From the NCBI RefSeq assembly GCF_001677475.2, contig NZ_CP015229.1: a stretch of 64,000 bases of DNA; one strand, 5' to 3'. This DNA is from Escherichia coli (GTDB lineage Bacteria > Pseudomonadota > Gammaproteobacteria > Enterobacterales > Enterobacteriaceae). Below the pieces are notes generated by a model. It did no database searches. It saw only the letters and a program-made list of their open reading frames with translations, and was not told the origin of the DNA. Each line of letters begins with the position of its first letter. The first letter of the stretch is position 1. This document shows positions 2,509 through 57,880 of the stretch, one piece after another. The position numbers and the translations under genes are program-made.

Positions 2509-2781
2509 TTAATGAACCAGCAGGGCGGCCTGGGTAAACAGGTGAATGCACAGGTCATGCAACTGGATAATCATCCATTTGCCGCACACGCCCAGCACCA
2601 CCAGCGTGACAATCAGCCTCGGTAAAAAGCTCAGAGTCTGTTCGTTAATCTGCGTCACCGCCTGGAACACGCTCACCAGCAGGCCGACCAGTAAACTCGG
2701 TACCACCAGCACAGAAACCAGTAAAATCACCACTTTTATGCCGCTGGCGACAATGTCGGCGGCTACGTCTACGGTCAACAT
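2509..2781 (-). CDS. lfiQ: Flagellar export apparatus FliQ homolog
   Basis: 90 aa, two TM helices, position between fliP and fliR homologs. Confidence 0.85.
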   Translation of the reverse strand: MLTVDVAADIVASGIKVVILLVSVLVVPSLLVGLLVSVFQAVTQINEQTLSFLPRLIVTLVVLGVCGKWMIIQLHDLCIHLFTQAALLVH

Positions 2782-2783
2782 AA

Positions 2784-3536
2784 TCAGCCCAGCCCCAGCC
2801 CGCGAATGCTGGTGGTGAGCGTACCGATGGTCAGCGACCAGCCGTCGATCAGCACAAACAGCATCAACTTAAAGGGCAGCGAAACAATCAGCGGCGACAG
2901 CATCATCATCCCCATCGCCATCAGTACGCTGGCGACAATCAGGTCGATAACCAGAAACGGGATGTAAATCATAAAGCCAATCTGGAAAGCGGTTTTCAGC
3001 TCGCTCAACACATAGGCGGGCACCACGATCGAGAGATCCTGATCGGCAGCATTGCCCTTCGCGCCGCCGATGGTCATGATTTGCGCCATCGCTTTTTTGT
3101 CAGTCTGCGCCAGCATAAAGCGTTTCAGCGGCGTAGCGGCGGTGCTCAACGCATCGGTCAGGGTAATCCGATCGTTTTCGAACGGCACCACAGCGTGGTC
3201 GTAAATATTGAGCCAGATGGGGCGCATCACCAGCATGGTGAGGGAGAGCGCAATGCCAATCAGAATGCGGTTCGGCGGCGTTTGTTGCAGCCCCAGCGCC
3301 TGGCGCAGCAGCGACAGCACGATAATAAAGCGCGTAAAGCAGGTCATCATCAGCACCATCGTCGGCAACAAACCGACGAGAGTCATCAGAATCAACACCT
3401 GAATTTTGACGCTGTATTCCTGAGTGTTGCCGTGGGTCACCACGTTAAGCAGCGCAATATCTCCGCCCTGGGCGAATGCCAGCGGGGCGAGCGCCAGCAG
3501 CCCAAGGCCCAGCGTCAGTTGAGTGCGGCGTTTCAT
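2784..3536 (-). CDS. lfiP: Flagellar export apparatus FliP homolog
   Basis: 250 aa with signal peptide and FliP-like TM core. Confidence 0.85.
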   Translation of the reverse strand: MKRRTQLTLGLGLLALAPLAFAQGGDIALLNVVTHGNTQEYSVKIQVLILMTLVGLLPTMVLMMTCFTRFIIVLSLLRQALGLQQTPPNRILIGIALSLTMLVMRPIWLNIYDHAVVPFENDRITLTDALSTAATPLKRFMLAQTDKKAMAQIMTIGGAKGNAADQDLSIVVPAYVLSELKTAFQIGFMIYIPFLVIDLIVASVLMAMGMMMLSPLIVSLPFKLMLFVLIDGWSLTIGTLTTSIRGLGLG

Positions 3537-36439: not shown

Positions 36440-37495
36440 ATGCGTAAAATCATTCATGTGGATATGGACTGCTTTTTCGCCGCGGTGGAGATGCGCGACA
36501 ATCCCGCCCTGCGCGATATCCCTATTGCTATTGGCGGCAGCCGCGAACGTCGGGGGGTGATCAGCACCGCCAATTATCCTGCGCGTAAATTTGGCGTACG
36601 TAGCGCTATGCCGACAGGGATGGCGCTCAAATTATGCCCACATCTCACCTTGCTTCCGGGGCGCTTTGACGCCTACAAAGAAGCCTCAAATCATATCCGT
36701 GAAATCTTCTCGCGCTACACCTCGCGCATTGAACCGTTGTCACTGGATGAAGCCTATCTCGATGTCACCGATAGCGTCCATTGCCACGGTTCTGCGACCC
36801 TCATCGCCCAGGAAATCCGCCAGACGATCTTCAACGAGCTGCAACTGACGGCGTCTGCGGGCGTGGCACCAGTAAAGTTTCTCGCCAAAATCGCCTCCGA
36901 CATGAATAAACCCAACGGCCAGTTTGTGATTACGCCGGCAGAAGTTCCGGCATTTTTACAAACCTTGCCGCTGGCAAAAATTCCCGGCGTCGGCAAAGTC
37001 TCGGCGGCAAAACTGGAAGCGATGGGGCTACGGACCTGCGGTGATGTGCAAAAGTGTGATCTGGTGATTCTGCTTAAACGCTTTGGCAAATTTGGCCGCA
37101 TTTTGTGGGAGCGTAGTCAGGGGATTGACGAGCGCGACGTTAACAGTGAACGGTTGCGAAAATCCGTCGGCGTGGAACGCACGATGGCGGAAGATATTCA
37201 TCACTGGTCTGAATGTGAAGCGATTATCGAGCGGCTGTATCCTGAACTTGAACGCCGTCTGGCAAAGGTAAAACCTGATTTACTGATTGCCCGCCAGGGG
37301 GTGAAATTAAAGTTCGATGATTTTCAGCAAACCACTCAGGAGCATGTCTGGCCGCGGCTGAATAAAGCTGACTTAATCGCCACCGCGCGTAAAACCTGGG
37401 ATGAACGCCGTGGCGGGCGCGGTGTGCGTCTGGTGGGGCTGCATGTGACGTTGCTTGACCCGCATATGGAAAGACAACTGGTGCTGGGATTATGA
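36440..37495 (+). CDS. dinB: DNA polymerase IV
   Basis: [23 protein letters not shown]-family polymerase N-terminus. Confidence 0.95.
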
Positions 37496-37546: not shown

Positions 37547-37840
37547 ATGCATCGAATTCTCGCTGAAAAATCGGTCAATATCACTGAGTTACGTAAAAAC
37601 CCAGCTAAATACTTTATTGATCAACCGGTTGCGGTTCTTTCTAATAATCGCCCCGCAGGATATCTCTTAAGTGCCAGCGCATTTGAAGCGTTAATGGACA
37701 TGCTTGCTGAACAAGAGGAGAAAAAACTGGTGAAGGCGCGCTTCCGTCCGAGTGCCGCAAGATTAGAGGAAATTACACGCCGCGCTGAACAATATCTTAA
37801 TGATATGACGGATGATGATTTCAATGACTTTAAGGAATAA
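37547..37840 (+). CDS. yafN: Antitoxin YafN (Phd/YefM family)
   Basis: 97 aa, operon with yafO downstream of dinB. Confidence 0.85.
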   Translation: MHRILAEKSVNITELRKNPAKYFIDQPVAVLSNNRPAGYLLSASAFEALMDMLAEQEEKKLVKARFRPSAARLEEITRRAEQYLNDMTDDDFNDFKE

Positions 37841-37842
37841 GG

Positions 37843-38241
37843 ATGCGGGTATTCAAAACAAAACTTATTCGCCTGCAACTTACAGCAGAGGAACTTGATG
37901 CGTTAACGGCGGATTTTATTTCCTATAAGCGTGACGGTGTTTTGCCAGATATATTTGGTCGCGATGCACTCTACGACGACTCGTTTACCTGGCCATTAAT
38001 CAAATTTGAGCGAGTTGCTCATATTCATCTGGCAAATGTGAATAATCCATTTCCGTCACAGTTGCGCCAATTCAGCAGAACGAATGACGAAGCGCATTTG
38101 GTATATTGTCAGGGTGCGTTTGATGAGCAAGCATGGTTGCTCATTGCCATTCTGAAACCTGAACCTCATAAACTGGCTCGAGATAACAACCAAATGCATA
38201 AAATTGGGAAAATGGCAGAAGCGTTTCGCATGCGTTTTTGA
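37843..38241 (+). CDS. yafO: Toxin YafO (ribosome-dependent mRNA interferase)
   Basis: 132 aa immediately after yafN. Confidence 0.85.
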   Translation: MRVFKTKLIRLQLTAEELDALTADFISYKRDGVLPDIFGRDALYDDSFTWPLIKFERVAHIHLANVNNPFPSQLRQFSRTNDEAHLVYCQGAFDEQAWLLIAILKPEPHKLARDNNQMHKIGKMAEAFRMRF

Positions 38242-38250
38242 ATTTATATT

Positions 38251-38703
38251 ATGAATAACATACAAATAAGAAACTATCAGCCTGGCGATTTTCAGCAACT
38301 ATGCGCTATTTTCCTTAGAGCGGTTACGATGACCGCCAGTCAGCATTATTCACCACAACAAATTGCCGCCTGGGCGCAGATTGACGAATCTCGCTGGAAG
38401 GATAAACTCGCGAAATCACAAGTGCGGGTTGCCATCATTAATGCACAACCGGTTGGTTTTATTTCCCGCATTGAACATTATATCGATATGTTATTTGTTG
38501 ACCCTGAATACACCCGCCGTGGGGTTGCCAGCGCTTTGTTAAAACCTTTGATTAAGTCTGAATCCGAACTTACAGTGGACGCCAGCATAACCGCAAAACC
38601 ATTTTTTGAACGTTATGGTTTTCAGACAGTTAAGCAGCAGCGCGTTGAATGCCGGGGAGCGAGGTTTACTAATTTTTATATGCGTTATAAACAGCAACAT
38701 TAA
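38251..38703 (+). CDS. yafP: GNAT family N-acetyltransferase YafP
   Basis: 150 aa, acetyl-CoA binding motif (RRGVASALL). Confidence 0.85.
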   Translation: MNNIQIRNYQPGDFQQLCAIFLRAVTMTASQHYSPQQIAAWAQIDESRWKDKLAKSQVRVAIINAQPVGFISRIEHYIDMLFVDPEYTRRGVASALLKPLIKSESELTVDASITAKPFFERYGFQTVKQQRVECRGARFTNFYMRYKQQH

Positions 38704-38881
38704 ATCCAGCTTGCAATGAAAATAACGCCCGCCTAATATGTGCGCGTTTTGTTATTCCACAAACTGCAAGGAGGTAAATCATGACAAATCCTTTATCAAT
38801 GACTCTTTGCAGACCTTTCCAGGATTAATTCTTTTTTTTCTTGCCCTGGATCCGTCTGCCATTTCCTGATTTTTATATTTA

Positions 38882-39007
38882 TATACTCTAAATAATTCGA
38901 GTTGTAGGAAGGCGACAAGCGAGTGAATCCCTAGGAGCTTACGAAAGTAAGTGACTGGGGTGAACGAACGCAGTCGTAGTACATGCAACTTGAAGTATGA
39001 CGAGTAT
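38882..39007. repeat. ERIC (IRU) element
   Basis: Contains gtgaatccctaggagcttac and aagtaagtgactggggtgaacg (ERIC1R/ERIC2 primer sites); terminal inverted repeats atatactc/gagtata. Confidence 0.85.
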
Positions 39008-39009
39008 AA

Positions 39010-40161
39010 ATGGAATGGTACATGGGCAAATATATTCGTCCCTTATCCGATGCGGTATTTACCATCGCATCTGATGACCTGTGGATCGAGAGTTTAGCGA
39101 TCCAACAATTACACACCACGGCAAATTTACCCAACATGCATCGCGTAGTGGGGATGCCAGATTTACACCCCGGACGTGGCTACCCGATTGGCGCAGCGTT
39201 CTTCTCCGTAGGTCGTTTTTACCCGGCGCTGGTCGGCAATGATATCGGCTGCGGCATGGCGCTATGGCAAACAGATATTCTCGTGCGCAAGTACAACGCC
39301 GATAAGTTTGAAAAGCGATTATCAGCTTTGGATGACGTTGCTGAAGAAAGCTGGCTGGAGGAAAACCTGCCGTCAGCGTTTGCACTACATCCGTGGCGCA
39401 GCTCGCTTGGCTCCATCGGCGGTGGCAATCACTTCGCTGAACTGCAACAGATTGATCAAATTATCGACGCGGAACTGTTTGCACTGGCAGGTCTGGATGC
39501 GCAGCATCTGCAACTGCTGGTTCATAGCGGATCGCGTGGTCTGGGGCAGTCTGTTTTACAAAAACATATTTCCACATTCTCGCATCATGGTTTGCCGGAA
39601 GGCAGTGATGACGCGATGCGCTATATCGTGGAACATGACGATGCGCTGGCGTTTGCTCGCATTAATCGCCAGATGATCGCCCTGCGCATAATGCAACAGG
39701 TGAAGGCTACGGGAAGTCCGGTTCTGGATGTGGCGCATAACTTCATTACCGCGAGTAAAATTGGCGATCAACAAGGCTGGTTACACCGTAAAGGGGCTGC
39801 GCCAGATGACAGTGGCCTGGTGGTTATCCCCGGTTCACGCGGTGATTACTCATGGCTTGTACAGCCTGTCAGTAGCGAAGAAATATTGCATTCGCTGGCG
39901 CATGGGGCAGGACGTAAATGGGGGCGCACCGAGTGCAAAGGACGGCTGGCAGCGAAATACACGGCGACGCAACTTACGCGTACTGAACTTGGCAGCAGGG
40001 TAATTTGTCGCGATAAACAGCTCATCTTTGAAGAGGCGCCGCAGGCCTATAAATCGGCAGAAAGCGTGGTGCAATGTCTGGTGCAGGCCGGTTTAATTAT
40101 TCCTGTCGCGCGGCTGCGCCCGGTGCTGACACTCAAAAACAGTGGAGGGAAAAAAGGATGA
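39010..40161 (+). CDS. rtcB2: RtcB-family RNA ligase paralog coupled to prfH (RtcB2)
   Basis: 383 aa; RtcB-like metal-binding His/Cys residues ([28 protein letters not shown]); ATGA overlap with prfH. Confidence 0.8.
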
Positions 40162-40772
40162 TCTTGCTACAACTCTCCTCAGCCCAGGGACCGGAAGAAT
40201 GCTGCCTCGCAGTCAAAAAGGCGTTGGACAGGCTGATTAAAGAAGCATCCCAACAGCGTGTTGCGGTAACGGTGCTGGAGACAGAAACGGGCCGCTACTC
40301 TGATTCGCTGCGTTCAGCGCTGGTTTCTCTGGATGGCGACAACGCATGGGCATTAAGCGAAAGCTGGTGCGGCACTATTCAGTGGATTTGTCCGAGTCCG
40401 TATCGGCCTCATCATGGGCGCAAAAACTGGTTTCTGGGCATTGGGCGTTTTACCGCTGATGAGCAGGAACAATCGGATGCAATCCGTTATGAGACGCTGC
40501 GTTCGTCGGGGCCGGGCGGTCAACATGTCAATAAAACCGACTCGGCGGTACGCGCCACGCATCTGGCTACCGGAATTAGTGTGAAGGTTCAGTCAGAGCG
40601 CAGCCAGCATGCTAACAAACGGCTGGCGCGATTGCTGATCGCCTGGAAGCTGGAACAACAGCAACAGGAAAATAGCGCGGTGCTGAAATCGCAGCGGCGA
40701 ATGTTCCATCACCAGATTGAACGTGGCAACCCGCGACGGACATTTACAGGGATGGCTTTTATCGAAGGATAA
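40158..40772 (+). CDS. prfH: Peptide chain release factor homolog PrfH
   Basis: GGQ motif ([16 protein letters not shown]); ~204 aa from ATG 40158. Confidence 0.85.
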
Positions 40773-40784
40773 TGAAGGATGAAA

Positions 40785-40814
40785 CTGCCGGAAGGCGATT
40801 AAACGCCATCCGGC
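40785..40814. terminator. Candidate bidirectional terminator hairpin between prfH and pepD
   Basis: tgccgga...tccggca inverted repeat. Confidence 0.45.
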
Positions 40815-40828
40815 AGCAAATCAAATAA

Positions 40829-42286
40829 TTACTTCGCCGGAATTTCTTTCAGCAGTTCAGTCAGCAGTGTCCAGTAATGACCTACGCTTTCGATGTGAAC
40901 TTGCTCATCCGGAGAGTGTGGACCGGTGATAGTTGGCCCGATAGACACCATGTCCATTTCCGGATACGGTTTTTTGAACAGACCACATTCCAGGCCCGCG
41001 TGGATAATCTGGATGTTCGGCGTCTTGTTGAACAGGCGCTGATAGGTTTCACGTACCAGATGCATCACCGGAGAATTAGCGTCCGGCTGCCAGCCAGGAT
41101 ATGCGCCTTTCGCTTCGGTTTTCGCGCCAGCCAATTTACCCAGCGAATCCAGCATGCTCACCACGTAGTCTTTACCGCTGTCGATCAGAGAACGGATCAG
41201 ACAGTGAATTTCTACGTTATTGTCAGTCATGGTCACCACACCGACGTTCAGGGAGGTTTCGACCACACCTTTTGCCACGTCGGAGTTGCGGATCACACCG
41301 TTCGGGGTGGCGTTCAGTAGACGAATAAAGGTATCGCGAGATTTCGCAATCAGGGCAGCTTTATCGTTCGCTACAGAGTCCAGCAACAAGGCCAGATTTT
41401 TCTCTTTCTCTGCCAGCTCGTTTTTCAGGATATCCTGATAGGTATTCACCAGAGATTTCAGGGCGTCGACTTTATCAGCTGCGACAGCAATGGTCGCAAA
41501 GGCTTCACGCGGGATGGCGTTACGCAGTGTGCCGCCGTTGAAATCAATAAGACGCAGGTCCAGTTCTTCTGCATGACCCGCCAGGAAGCGCACCAGCAGT
41601 TTGTTGGCATTACCCAGGCCAACGTGGATTTCACCGCCGGAGTGACCGCCTTTCAGACCTTTTAAGGTTAACTTGAAGGTTTCAAAACCAGCTGGAACCG
41701 CTTCACGATCTAAATGCAGGTTGGAGGTGAAGTCGATACCCCCCGCACAACCCATGTAGATTTCACCTTCTTCTTCGGAGTCGGTGTTAATCAAAATATC
41801 AGCCTGCAACCAGTTGCTCTGTAAGCCGAACGCACCGTCCATACCTGCTTCTTCGGTCATGGTCAGCAGCACTTCCAGCGGGCCGTGAACCACGTTTTCG
41901 TCAGCCAGAACCGCCAGTGCAGAGGCCATACCAATGCCGTTATCCGCACCCAGCGTGGTACCGCGCGCTTTAACCCATTCGCCATCAATATAAGGCTGGA
42001 TAGGATCTTTAGTGAAGTCATGCACGGTGTCGTTATTTTTCTGCGGCACCATATCGAGGTGGGCCTGCAAGACGACCGGTTTACGATTTTCCATACCTGC
42101 GGTAGCAGGTTTACGAATCAGGATATTACCTACCTGATCGCGTTCGACATGGAAACCTTTCTCTTTTGCCCAACCAACAATGTATTCAGCGAGTTGCTCT
42201 TCATGATAGGACGGGTGAGGAATAGAACAGATTTTGGCAAAAATATCCCACAGCGGCTGTGGAGATAATTGAGACAGTTCAGACAC
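40829..42286 (-). CDS. pepD: Cytosol non-specific dipeptidase (aminoacyl-histidine dipeptidase)
   Basis: 485 aa M20 family peptidase. Confidence 0.9.
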   Translation of the reverse strand: MSELSQLSPQPLWDIFAKICSIPHPSYHEEQLAEYIVGWAKEKGFHVERDQVGNILIRKPATAGMENRKPVVLQAHLDMVPQKNNDTVHDFTKDPIQPYIDGEWVKARGTTLGADNGIGMASALAVLADENVVHGPLEVLLTMTEEAGMDGAFGLQSNWLQADILINTDSEEEGEIYMGCAGGIDFTSNLHLDREAVPAGFETFKLTLKGLKGGHSGGEIHVGLGNANKLLVRFLAGHAEELDLRLIDFNGGTLRNAIPREAFATIAVAADKVDALKSLVNTYQDILKNELAEKEKNLALLLDSVANDKAALIAKSRDTFIRLLNATPNGVIRNSDVAKGVVETSLNVGVVTMTDNNVEIHCLIRSLIDSGKDYVVSMLDSLGKLAGAKTEAKGAYPGWQPDANSPVMHLVRETYQRLFNKTPNIQIIHAGLECGLFKKPYPEMDMVSIGPTITGPHSPDEQVHIESVGHYWTLLTELLKEIPAK

Positions 42287-57752: not shown

Positions 57753-57880
57753 ATATACTCTAAATAATTCAAGTTGCAGGAAGGCGACAAGTGAGTGAAT
57801 CCCCAGGAGCTTACAAAAGTAAGTGACTGGGGTGAATGAACGCAGTCGCAGCACATGCAACTTGAAGTATGACGAGTATA
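57753..57880. repeat. ERIC (IRU) element, second copy
   Basis: gtgaatccccaggagcttac and aagtaagtgactggggtgaatg; ~90% identical to copy at 38882. Confidence 0.85.

Follow-up and report, generated by a model that had tools for sequence, protein, structure and literature searches.

An intact rtcB2-prfH operon of Escherichia coli with a conserved upstream leader that may act as a translational switch and an ERIC element as its likely passenger

The subject of this analysis is the rtcB2-prfH locus of Escherichia coli, which encodes an RNA ligase and a release-factor homologue, as it stands in a window of 64,000 nucleotides of contig NZ_CP015229.1 (assembly GCF_001677475.2). Just upstream of the two genes lies an enterobacterial repetitive intergenic consensus (ERIC) element, and upstream of that a short stretch that we interpret below as a regulatory leader. 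Open reading frames (ORFs) on the + strand run from 39010 to 40161, which gives 383 amino acids counted from the first ATG, and from 40074 or 40158 to 40772. These correspond to two genes:

39022-40161, + strand: rtcB2, a PrfH-coupled RtcB-family 3'-phosphate/5'-OH RNA ligase of 379 amino acids
40158-40772, + strand: prfH, a release-factor homologue without domain 1, of 204 amino acids, with a GGQ motif at residues 120-122

Both proteins were scored against family models. RtcB2 reaches 629.2 bits against the curated model NF007153 (cut-off 407) and 612.5 bits against the NCBIfam model TIGR03073 'release_rtcB' (cut-off 271.8), and PrfH reaches 325.5 bits against TIGR03072 'release_prfH' (NCBIfam; cut-off 166.65), with its residues 2-201 aligned to model positions 1-200. 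As these scores far exceed the cut-offs, neither gene is a chance ORF. The metal-binding motifs and the H294-GAGRK motif of RtcB2 align with the RtcB proteins of P. horikoshii and T. thermophilus, and His294 is the published catalytic residue, altered in the mutant H294N. PrfH is identical to the PrfH of the cryo-EM entry PDB 7SA4 at 196 of 204 positions (96%), its alignment to RF1 and RF2 is confined to their domains 2-4 (RF2 residues ~116-310), and Q122 of its GGQ is the residue changed in the published inactive variant Q122E. The original prediction that both genes are full-length, with an intact GGQ in a PrfH of 204 residues, is borne out, and the catalytic motifs are intact. Its figure of 383 residues for RtcB2 needs correction: the family model aligns from residue 5 of the 383-residue ORF, RefSeq homologues are annotated at 379 amino acids, and H294 matches the published mutant H294N only under the 379-residue numbering, which together set the start at 39022 and not at 39010. 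The ATGA overlap between the genes is real (prfH ATG at 40158, rtcB2 stop TGA at 40159-40161) and would be expected to couple their translation; in all related loci compared, rtcB2 likewise lies upstream of prfH and overlaps it. Alignment with three intact E. coli alleles shows no frameshift, indel or stop, and at a ratio of nonsynonymous to synonymous substitution (dN/dS) of 0.08-0.12, that is ~0.1, both genes are by this measure under purifying selection. The exact proteins are on record for E. coli as ANO87451.1 (RtcB2; 53 contigs) and ANO87452.1 (PrfH; 63 contigs).

The gene pair itself is already known, and its biochemistry, structure and colicin E3 phenotype have all been published. The operon was predicted in 2006, together with its translational coupling and a deletion of ~1000 nt in K-12. 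In 2022, RtcB2-PrfH of strain ATCC 25922 was found to protect from colicin E3 (PMC9304027, PMC9223846), through a sequential action in which rescue by PrfH is followed by ligation of 16S rRNA by RtcB2 (PMC9304027, PMC9223846, PMC13166195). PrfH frees peptidyl- or fMet-tRNA on ribosomes whose 16S rRNA is cut between A1493 and G1494 (PMC9304027), and a 2026 paper in RNA Biol reported that PrfH speeds the repair of E3-cleaved ribosomes and that such ribosomes accumulate at the start codon (PMC13166195). RtcB1 does not repair E3-cut ribosomes. The role in rescue and repair after ribotoxin damage that had been proposed for this window is thus a published one for ATCC 25922 (PMC9304027, PMC9223846, PMC13166195), and it is practically certain that rtcB2 and prfH here are, in identity and function, that rescue and repair pair. 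Ligation of E3-cleaved 16S rRNA by this particular RtcB2 allele would be expected from the characterised ATCC 25922 enzyme; peptide release on ribosomes cut at A1493/G1494, shown for the 96%-identical ATCC 25922 protein, would likewise be expected of this PrfH.

The control of the operon in E. coli is a different matter, and we found no published account of it in the literature covered. The E. coli papers on rtcB2-prfH use heterologous promoters or mention 'natural expression levels', and none of the rtcB2 or ykfJ papers found concerns regulation. Upstream of the ERIC element, positions 38700-38880 are almost invariant among E. coli strains, and their architecture recurs in all 24 related loci. 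These loci were gathered by an RtcB2 scan of genome contigs (8 loci), widened by a protein search and 12 contig look-ups, and span Escherichia, Klebsiella, Citrobacter, Salmonella, Phytobacter, Kosakonia, Cronobacter, Entomohabitans, Intestinirhabdus, Limnobaculum, Leminorella, Providencia, Proteus and two Pseudomonas. The architecture begins with two features:

38711-38739, + strand: promoter-like element, TTGCAA (38711-38716) and TAATAT (38734-38739) separated by 17 nt, recognised by comparison across taxa
38781-38828, + strand: leader ORF of 15 codons, MTNPLSMTLCRPFQD, unannotated, with its stop codon in the loop of the helix H2 described below

In 17 of 18 taxa, P. aeruginosa included, a TTGC..-17-TA..AT motif stands 69-89 nt 5' of the leader ATG, whatever the upstream gene. 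The transcript would most likely start at ~38745-38747, just after yafP and not in the ERIC element. In the interval 38500-40900 a consensus promoter scan returned no site with at least 9 of 12 matches. Given that yafP ends at 38703, on the same strand and close to the leader, and that the order dinB-(yafP)-rtcB2-prfH-pepD is conserved in Enterobacteriaceae, one could suppose instead that most expression of rtcB2-prfH comes from read-through of the SOS-regulated dinB-yafNOP operon. However, Limnobaculum, Leminorella, Providencia, Proteus and Pseudomonas have unrelated genes upstream and yet keep motif and leader, and the promoter-like motif holds a fixed distance from the leader, which makes expression mainly by read-through very improbable. 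In E. coli, the spacer and -10 part of the promoter-like element (38724-38760) can also form a hairpin, AACG(C)CGC...GCGCGTT, followed by TTTTGTTATT. This hairpin could be a terminator of yafP, and so of the dinB operon, overlapping the proposed rtcB2 promoter; it is not conserved in Klebsiella or Citrobacter.

The leader ORF stands behind a near-perfect Shine-Dalgarno (SD) sequence, GCAA(A)GGAGG, placed 5-6 nt before its ATG across the related loci and perfect in the window. All 24 loci have a leader ORF of 13-15 codons preceded by a strong SD (14 codons in Providencia, 13 in Pseudomonas). Codons 2-8 share 44% identity between taxa, and their frame contains an in-frame stop in none of 13 taxa, against 9 and 5 of 13 for the other two frames over the same codons. 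A composition-matched simulation puts the open leader frame at P ~0.002, a significance that is overstated because lineages were taken as independent. Indels and length changes within the leader come only in multiples of 3, and the distance from its stop to rtcB2 is 60-76 nt in Enterobacterales, insertions set aside. The N-terminus of the encoded peptide is not conserved, and no coding sequence is annotated at the leader in the RefSeq genomes inspected.

A leader of this kind has been described for P. aeruginosa. PA5471 (ArmZ) falls in the same cluster as RtcB2, PRK09588, and shares an operon with PA5470, which is homologous to release factors; this operon is controlled by the 13-residue leader PA5471.1, ~250 bp upstream (PMC3516279). 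Ribosome stalling on PA5471.1, or an early amber codon (Q3Am), turns armZ on (reviews PMC3516279, PMC12057347), and K-12 ykfJ has been reported to be inducible by 4-azaleucine (PMC3516279). The P. aeruginosa locus that we examined was confirmed as armZ by a match to a published armZ primer. Its ArmZ is 59% identical to the RtcB2 of the window, PA5470 is PrfH, and its leader, MIQFSTLCRLRLA, lies at -254 and has Q3 and F4 as published for PA5471.1. The shared leader motifs, together with the orthologous downstream genes, identify the enterobacterial ORF as the counterpart of PA5471.1, and we have good confidence that it is a real, translated regulatory ORF homologous to that leader. In an alignment with RtcB2, the catalytic motifs of RtcB are preserved in ArmZ, among them the histidine that corresponds to H294, and ArmZ may also be an active rRNA ligase.

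We then looked at RNA structure using an alignment of 17 distinct leaders from which insertions had been excised. Four segments were distinguished in the window:

38764-38773, + strand: segment 1, CUGCAAGGAG, including the leader SD AAGGAGG (38768-38774) and pairing with segment 2 (helix H1, or 1:2); from a repeat search and RNAalifold
38803-38823, + strand: segment 2, CUCUUUGCAG, which forms H1 with segment 1; GCAGACCUUUCCAGG, which overlaps it, makes up the 5' arm of hairpin H2 (2:3)
38845-38866, + strand: segment 3, CCUGGAUCCGUCUGC, which supplies the 3' arm of H2; GUCUGCCAUUUCC (38854-38866), which overlaps it, is the strand of helix H3 (3:4) opposite the ribosome-binding site (RBS)
39012-39027, + strand: segment 4, GGAAUGGUACAUGGGC, holding the weak SD, start codon and codon 2 of rtcB2 and pairing with segment 3 (H3)

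Unguided, RNAalifold pairs the leader SD region with CUUUGCAG (helix 1:2), with a small inner hairpin, and forms a long helix between GUCUGCCAnnUCC and GGAWUGGUAYAUGGGC, which comprises the rtcB2 SD, start codon and codon 2 (helix 3:4). This 1:2/3:4 fold is 94.4% paired over the 17 taxa, with 4 pairs changed on both sides; H1 by itself is 95% paired, and the 3:4 helix 94-96%. Helix 2:3, built from GCAGAC/GUCUGC and CCAGG/CCUGG, is 93% paired with 5 doubly changed pairs, values reached in 0-2 of 500 shuffles, and all slid registers score far lower; in both folds the compensatory changes exceed those of the shuffled and slid controls. Because MAFFT misplaced the 3' arm in the leader of Proteus, the paired counts are conservative. 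When the arms were located by anchors, Proteus gave 6/6, and the outer stem of H2 was paired at 6/6 positions in 17 of 17 taxa through seven arm combinations, five of them fully Watson-Crick and two with one G-U pair (GCAGAC/GUCUGC, GCAGGC/GUCUGC, GCAGGC/GCCUGC, GCGGGC/GCCCGC, GCGGAC/GUCCGC, GCAGAU/AUCUGC and GCAGGU/GCCUGC).

The two folds compete for the same nucleotides. GCAG is common to 1:2 and 2:3 and GUCUGC to 2:3 and 3:4, and because of this sharing helices 1:2 and 3:4 on the one hand and 2:3 on the other are mutually exclusive. One column, the U/C in GUCUGC, pairs with both of its partners, A/G in 2:3 and G in 3:4. The 5' arm of H2 is the end of the leader ORF and its loop holds the stop codon, and in all 15-codon leaders GCAGAC starts at a fixed 28 nt from the leader AUG. 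Directly after H2 follows GCCAnnUCC, complementary to the GGAWUGG just before the rtcB2 ATG; taxa with GGAAUGG have CCAU.UCC, and taxa with GGAUUGG have CCA(A/C).UCC. This leader anatomy is that of a four-segment attenuator. We considered an arrest peptide as the main cause of the conservation of the LC(R/G) codons of the leader and rejected it, since the same nucleotides form the shared strand of H1 and H2; the residues neighbouring LC(R/G) change non-conservatively (P/H/L/R/S and F/S/T/I). Two side observations concern these helices. In Intestinirhabdus alba (locus 1220-1500) the H2 loop carries an insertion of ~172 nt and the helix arms are preserved. In E. coli, a 5' stretch at 38750-38758, UUAUUCCAC, can in the model pair with the freed rtcB2 RBS, GGAAUGG, when the leader AUG is blocked; the stretch is not conserved outside Escherichia, and this pairing is probably incidental.

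We estimated the energy needed to open the rtcB2 RBS with ribosomes placed along the leader. A ribosome on leader codons 1-5 gives a mean of 10.8-11.4 kcal/mol and one on codons 7-15 a mean of 13.4-14.3 kcal/mol; for the segment 4 region the cost is put at 8-16 kcal/mol, and across all modelled states it is 8-18 kcal/mol. Sequestration as strong as this would also fit a simpler arrangement, in which the upstream block is only a constitutive promoter with a structured 5' untranslated region (UTR) that keeps rtcB2 low and the small ORF senses nothing. Moderate, low expression has been argued to be optimal for the rtcB2-prfH operon (PMC13166195), and the in-silico switch is weak in some taxa, both of which would suit such an arrangement. 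It does not account for an ORF whose frame, length and distance to segment 2 are conserved though its sequence is not, or for two mutually exclusive helices that are both kept by compensatory changes, and for the homologous leader of Pseudomonas there is experimental support that it senses stalls. We therefore consider a leader that senses nothing quite unlikely.

Between the leader and rtcB2 lies the repeat element:

38882-39008, + strand: full-length ERIC (intergenic repeat unit, IRU) of 127 nt, inserted in the AT-rich loop that separates segment 3 from the rtcB2 RBS

The element was correctly placed just upstream of rtcB2 in the original prediction; its end lies 1 nt short of the first ATG (39010) and 13 nt short of the conserved rtcB2 start (39022). 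It is an imperfect palindrome with 23-nt terminal arms (fold -52.5 kcal/mol, z = -8.7), and its core matches the ERIC2 primer at 21 of 22 bases, where no match is expected by chance. ERIC was matched in 5425 of the 5426 E. coli genomes, with a median of 9 places per genome, and the window holds a second full-length copy at ~57754-57880 that is 93% identical, with similarity stopping at the element ends and a left flank that is likewise AT-rich. In Rfam over 38600-39150 (E <= 10) the ERIC element gave only sub-threshold matches (V_AS5, 42.6 bits against a gathering score of 96; Ysr49; isrH), and beyond these the interval gave a weak antisense STnc350 match and no known leader family. An ORF of 69 amino acids on the minus strand (38779-38988) crosses the element.

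At the yafP-rtcB2 spacer the element is polymorphic. It is full in the window, K-12 and PEC408, short and internally deleted in GF50, and the site is empty in ST131. The full form occupies the locus in 1650 of 5426 complete genomes, and an evenly spaced sample of the other genomes showed ~78% coverage (the short form) or 60% (the empty site). No ERIC is present at the site in E. whittamii, where the empty site reads ...TTTATATTTATAAATGG, or in K. oxytoca, Citrobacter, Salmonella, Phytobacter, Kosakonia, Cronobacter and the more distant genera, and K. spallanzanii has a short ERIC at the same position. Short ERIC-like insertions (53-64 nt excised) at the same AT-rich site were seen in K. spallanzanii, GF50 and Escherichia sp. 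E1V33, which suggests either that this site is a recurrent insertion target or that an old element has been repeatedly trimmed or lost.

It had been proposed that the ERIC element supplies the operon with a promoter or with mRNA structure. The element does abut the ORF and would bring a very stable hairpin into the mRNA, and it raises the modelled opening energy of the rtcB2 RBS by 2-4 kcal/mol relative to ERIC-less E. coli leaders, by which it may modulate expression. Intact operons, however, occur with a full, a short or no ERIC; the PrfH of the ERIC-less ST131 locus is identical at 203 of 204 positions to the functional, characterised ATCC 25922 protein; other genera without ERIC keep the promoter-like motif and the leader; and the consensus scan found no sigma-70-like site inside the element. 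Since ERIC is polymorphic at the site, absent from most other genera and, in the consensus scan, devoid of a promoter-like site, it is very unlikely to be the operon promoter, for which the conserved motif further upstream is the candidate. What survives of the structural proposal is that the element is probably part of the mRNA 5' UTR, where it is predicted to fold on itself and leave helix 3:4 intact; it is probably dispensable and is not the source of the leader. That the operon needs ERIC for promoter or structure is thus highly improbable, and the element is very likely a passenger, a later polymorphic insertion into a pre-existing leader. For annotation this carries a warning: ERIC is the feature most conspicuous to the naked-eye reader, yet it is the least functional part of the region.

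Together these data are best explained by an intact rtcB2-prfH operon with a conserved leader switch, in which ERIC is a passenger, a reading to which we assign a probability of roughly 0.6. Comparison across taxa gives strong evidence for the leader and its bistable 5' UTR. As to how the switch would work, we favour translational attenuation of the ermC type because the RBS of rtcB2 is itself segment 4, the scan detected no site resembling a terminator and no U-run follows 3:4; that it is translational attenuation set off by start-proximal stalls we put at a little short of even odds. At rest, helices 1:2 and 3:4 would be formed, as in the predicted minimum-energy fold, so that both SD sequences are masked and rtcB2 initiation is blocked. 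A ribosome translating through to the leader stop would cover segment 2, and 3:4 would persist. A ribosome held at the leader start or within the first few codons would instead cover segment 1 and leave segment 2 free from about +23; given a start-codon toeprint at +15/16, the GCAGAC arm at +28, and the 1:2 strand a few nt earlier, would be uncovered. The free segment 2 could then pair with segment 3 (GCAGAC/GUCUGC), whereupon 3:4 would lose its extension over the AUG and the rtcB2 start would be exposed. Under this model, altering the leader element GCCAUUUCC would make rtcB2 constitutive. Its appeal lies in the fact that the position at which E3-cleaved ribosomes stall, the start codon, is the inducing position, so that E3-cleaved or drug-stalled ribosomes parked at the leader AUG would induce their own repair system. 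We tentatively propose, at somewhat less than even odds, that the enterobacterial leader detects ribosomes unable to leave the start codon, flips the 5' UTR and induces the repair enzymes.

Transcription attenuation, as published for P. aeruginosa, offers another mechanism: full translation of the leader would let a terminator, intrinsic or Rho-dependent, stop RNA polymerase, and a stalled ribosome would prevent this. It is the mechanism proposed for the homologous PA5471.1-armZ system, in which armZ mRNA rises on induction, and in the leaders compared here a U-rich stretch follows hairpin H2 in all taxa, while a structured, untranslated 5' UTR of 110-240 nt could conceivably be a Rho substrate. 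We looked for a terminator hairpin of the PA5471.1 type (3:4) and found no terminator-like site in 38700-39022 and no U-run after segment 4 or helix 3:4; the U-run near H2 comes ~10 nt after the stem. In addition, segment 4 comprises the rtcB2 SD and AUG, which points to translational control; the 150-190 extra nt of P. aeruginosa are missing from the compact enterobacterial leaders; and a review of the Pseudomonas system says that the mechanism there awaits confirmation. On this evidence we hold transcription attenuation to be unlikely in the enterobacterial leaders. An intrinsic terminator made of H2 and its U-run was examined as a candidate and rejected as non-canonical, with a loop of 19-21 nt and a U-run ~10 nt past the stem.

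Several points weigh against a leader switch of the translational kind. Most helix positions are invariant, and some of their conservation could stem from coding or SD constraints. The core pairing between anti-SD and SD is not broken by 2:3, only its extension over the AUG. The modelled switch is modest though mostly consistent, with a mean of ~2.5-3 kcal/mol, and three of the 19 leaders, those of K. oxytoca, K. spallanzanii and Citrobacter, do not show it; estimates of the unpaired probability of the RBS under ribosome footprints were inconsistent. The element TTGCAA-17-TAATAT matches the consensus at 8 of 12 positions and was not called by the consensus scan, and we infer the transcript start, the translation of the leader and inducibility in E. 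coli alike. Wild-type ATCC 25922 is protected without any reported induction step. The mechanism proposed for PA5471.1 is transcription attenuation, which a 2025 review calls still unconfirmed. In the literature covered we found no match to the leader peptide string and no description of an E. coli leader (Morita et al. 2009 lay outside that coverage), and the papers found that join prfH with a leader peptide were Pseudomonas reviews only. What the comparative model offers is a promoter, a translated leader and three helices in a concrete and cheaply testable form, and K-12, which has the promoter, the leader, ERIC and 68 rtcB2 codons, is a possible ready reporter background.

The decay of the locus in K-12, as noted in the original prediction, is evident: ykfJ and prfH are flagged there as pseudogenes, and window positions 39227-40253 (1027 bp) are absent, with the deletion junction between imperfect TACCCG(G/A)CA repeats. 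This gap matches the ~1000-nt deletion described in 2006. K-12 retains the promoter-like element, the leader, ERIC and the first 68 codons of rtcB2. An intact pair is common, in about half of complete E. coli genomes, with at least 80% of the coding region covered in 2674 of 5426. The window copy is divergent among these: over the coding region it shares only 92-93% identity with each of the intact E. coli copies, and in the 5426 complete genomes none that is intact exceeds 93.5%. Its rtcB2 shares 90-91% nucleotide and ~93% amino-acid identity with other intact E. coli alleles, and its RtcB2 is ~93% identical to the B2-type allele of ST131 (352 of 379-380 positions). The difference is concentrated in the centre of rtcB2 (39450-39950), which is 77-90% identical to intact E. 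coli alleles, with a synonymous divergence (dS) of 0.5-0.6 and dN/dS of ~0.12-0.14, and the gene ends and flanks around it are 95-100% identical. The pattern points to an old, divergent lineage of alleles or to a segment acquired by introgression. The retained parts of K-12/O157-type remnants are 96.6-100% identical to the window, closer than the intact alleles are, and the window thus preserves in intact form the allele lineage that K-12 and O157 have lost by deletion. Among the 5426 complete genomes this lineage is nowhere intact, yet it is present in draft assemblies.

In the surrounding region the gene order is dinB (36440-37495), yafN, yafO, yafP (38251-38703), the intergenic stretch, rtcB2, prfH, pepD (40829-42286, minus strand) and gpt, and pepD-gpt is 99.1% identical to O157:H7 genomes. 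The yafN-yafO pair (37547-38241) lies between dinB and yafP in the window, K-12 and PEC408; in ST131 and GF50 dinB overlaps yafP directly, so that this toxin-antitoxin pair is polymorphic. The yafP of PEC408 has an internal stop. In Intestinirhabdus alba, prfH is apparently split into ORFs of 144 and 61 amino acids (locus 2637-3312), which suggests that the rtcB2-prfH operon is decaying there. Between prfH and pepD, which converge, direct reading of the sequence shows one further feature:

40785-40816, no strand assigned: inverted repeat CTGCCGGAAGGCG-ATTAAA-CGCCATCCGGCAG, 13 bp with one mismatch

The repeat is possibly a shared terminator of prfH and pepD, or else an element like the repetitive extragenic palindromic (REP) sequences; the terminator scan made no call at 40785-40816.

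Among known systems, the rtcBA operon (RtcB1), controlled by RtcR and sigma-54, shares the RNA ligase superfamily PF01139 with RtcB2. It differs in subfamily and regulation, and the window shows no RtcR or sigma-54 context. The ERIC/IRU repeats of Enterobacteriaceae were reportedly described by Sharples and Lloyd in 1990 and by Hulton et al. in 1991. The element found here resembles that family as a multi-copy, intergenic, 127-bp imperfect palindrome of which short, internally deleted forms occur; only its position inside a regulatory leader, where full and short forms recur at one site in Escherichia and K. spallanzanii, is notable, and the element itself is ordinary.

In the translational attenuators of ermC, cat and cmlA, as in the leader proposed here, a short leader ORF and four segments mask the downstream SD and AUG at rest, and a stall is predicted to free them. 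Unlike in those systems, segment 1 is the leader's own SD, the stall would be one at codons 1-3 of any cause rather than at a drug-dependent arrest peptide, and there is no sequence homology. As regards ermC-type behaviour, sequestration is clear, and the predicted release has the mean of ~2.5-3 kcal/mol given above, with none in 3 of 19 leaders.

The closest relative of the gene pair is the ATCC 25922 module (Tian et al. PNAS 2022, PDB 7SA4; Maviza et al. IJMS 2022; RNA Biol 2026), which has the same locus, the same two genes, the ATGA overlap, and H294 and Q122. The window differs from it in holding a divergent allele and a full ERIC in the 5' UTR.

For the leader, the nearest known system is PA5471.1. 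Common to it and the leader of E. coli are the SD context, CCCUUUGCAGGC, GGUCUGCC and AUGGAUUGGAUUAUGGGC; a short ORF behind a GCAAAGGAGG Shine-Dalgarno sequence, with the core ...(S/M)TLCR...; the motifs CUUUGCAGRC, GUCUGCC and GGAUUGG-N-AUGGGC; and the promoter-like TTGC..-17-TA..AT. Alternative pairings downstream of the leader, a feature sought in a PA5471.1-type system, are conserved with compensatory changes. The two differ in leader length (15 codons in E. coli against 13), in the distance from leader to gene (108-124 nt in Enterobacterales without insertions, against 254 nt in P. aeruginosa), and in that no terminator is evident in Enterobacterales. The extra ~150-190 nt of P. aeruginosa lie between segments 2 and 3, where the leader stop is 169 nt from the 3' arm, against 20-29 nt in Enterobacterales. 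ArmZ, in addition, is a MexZ anti-repressor. In the papers compared, the E. coli RtcB2/PrfH work makes no mention of ArmZ, PA5471, Pseudomonas, or a promoter, leader or upstream element, and the Pseudomonas ArmZ literature is likewise silent on the E. coli repair system. The model presented here links the enterobacterial leader to the experimentally supported stall sensor that drives MexXY-mediated aminoglycoside resistance in P. aeruginosa and, if true, would join two literatures, that of rRNA repair by RtcB2/PrfH in E. coli and that of ArmZ/MexXY aminoglycoside resistance in P. aeruginosa.

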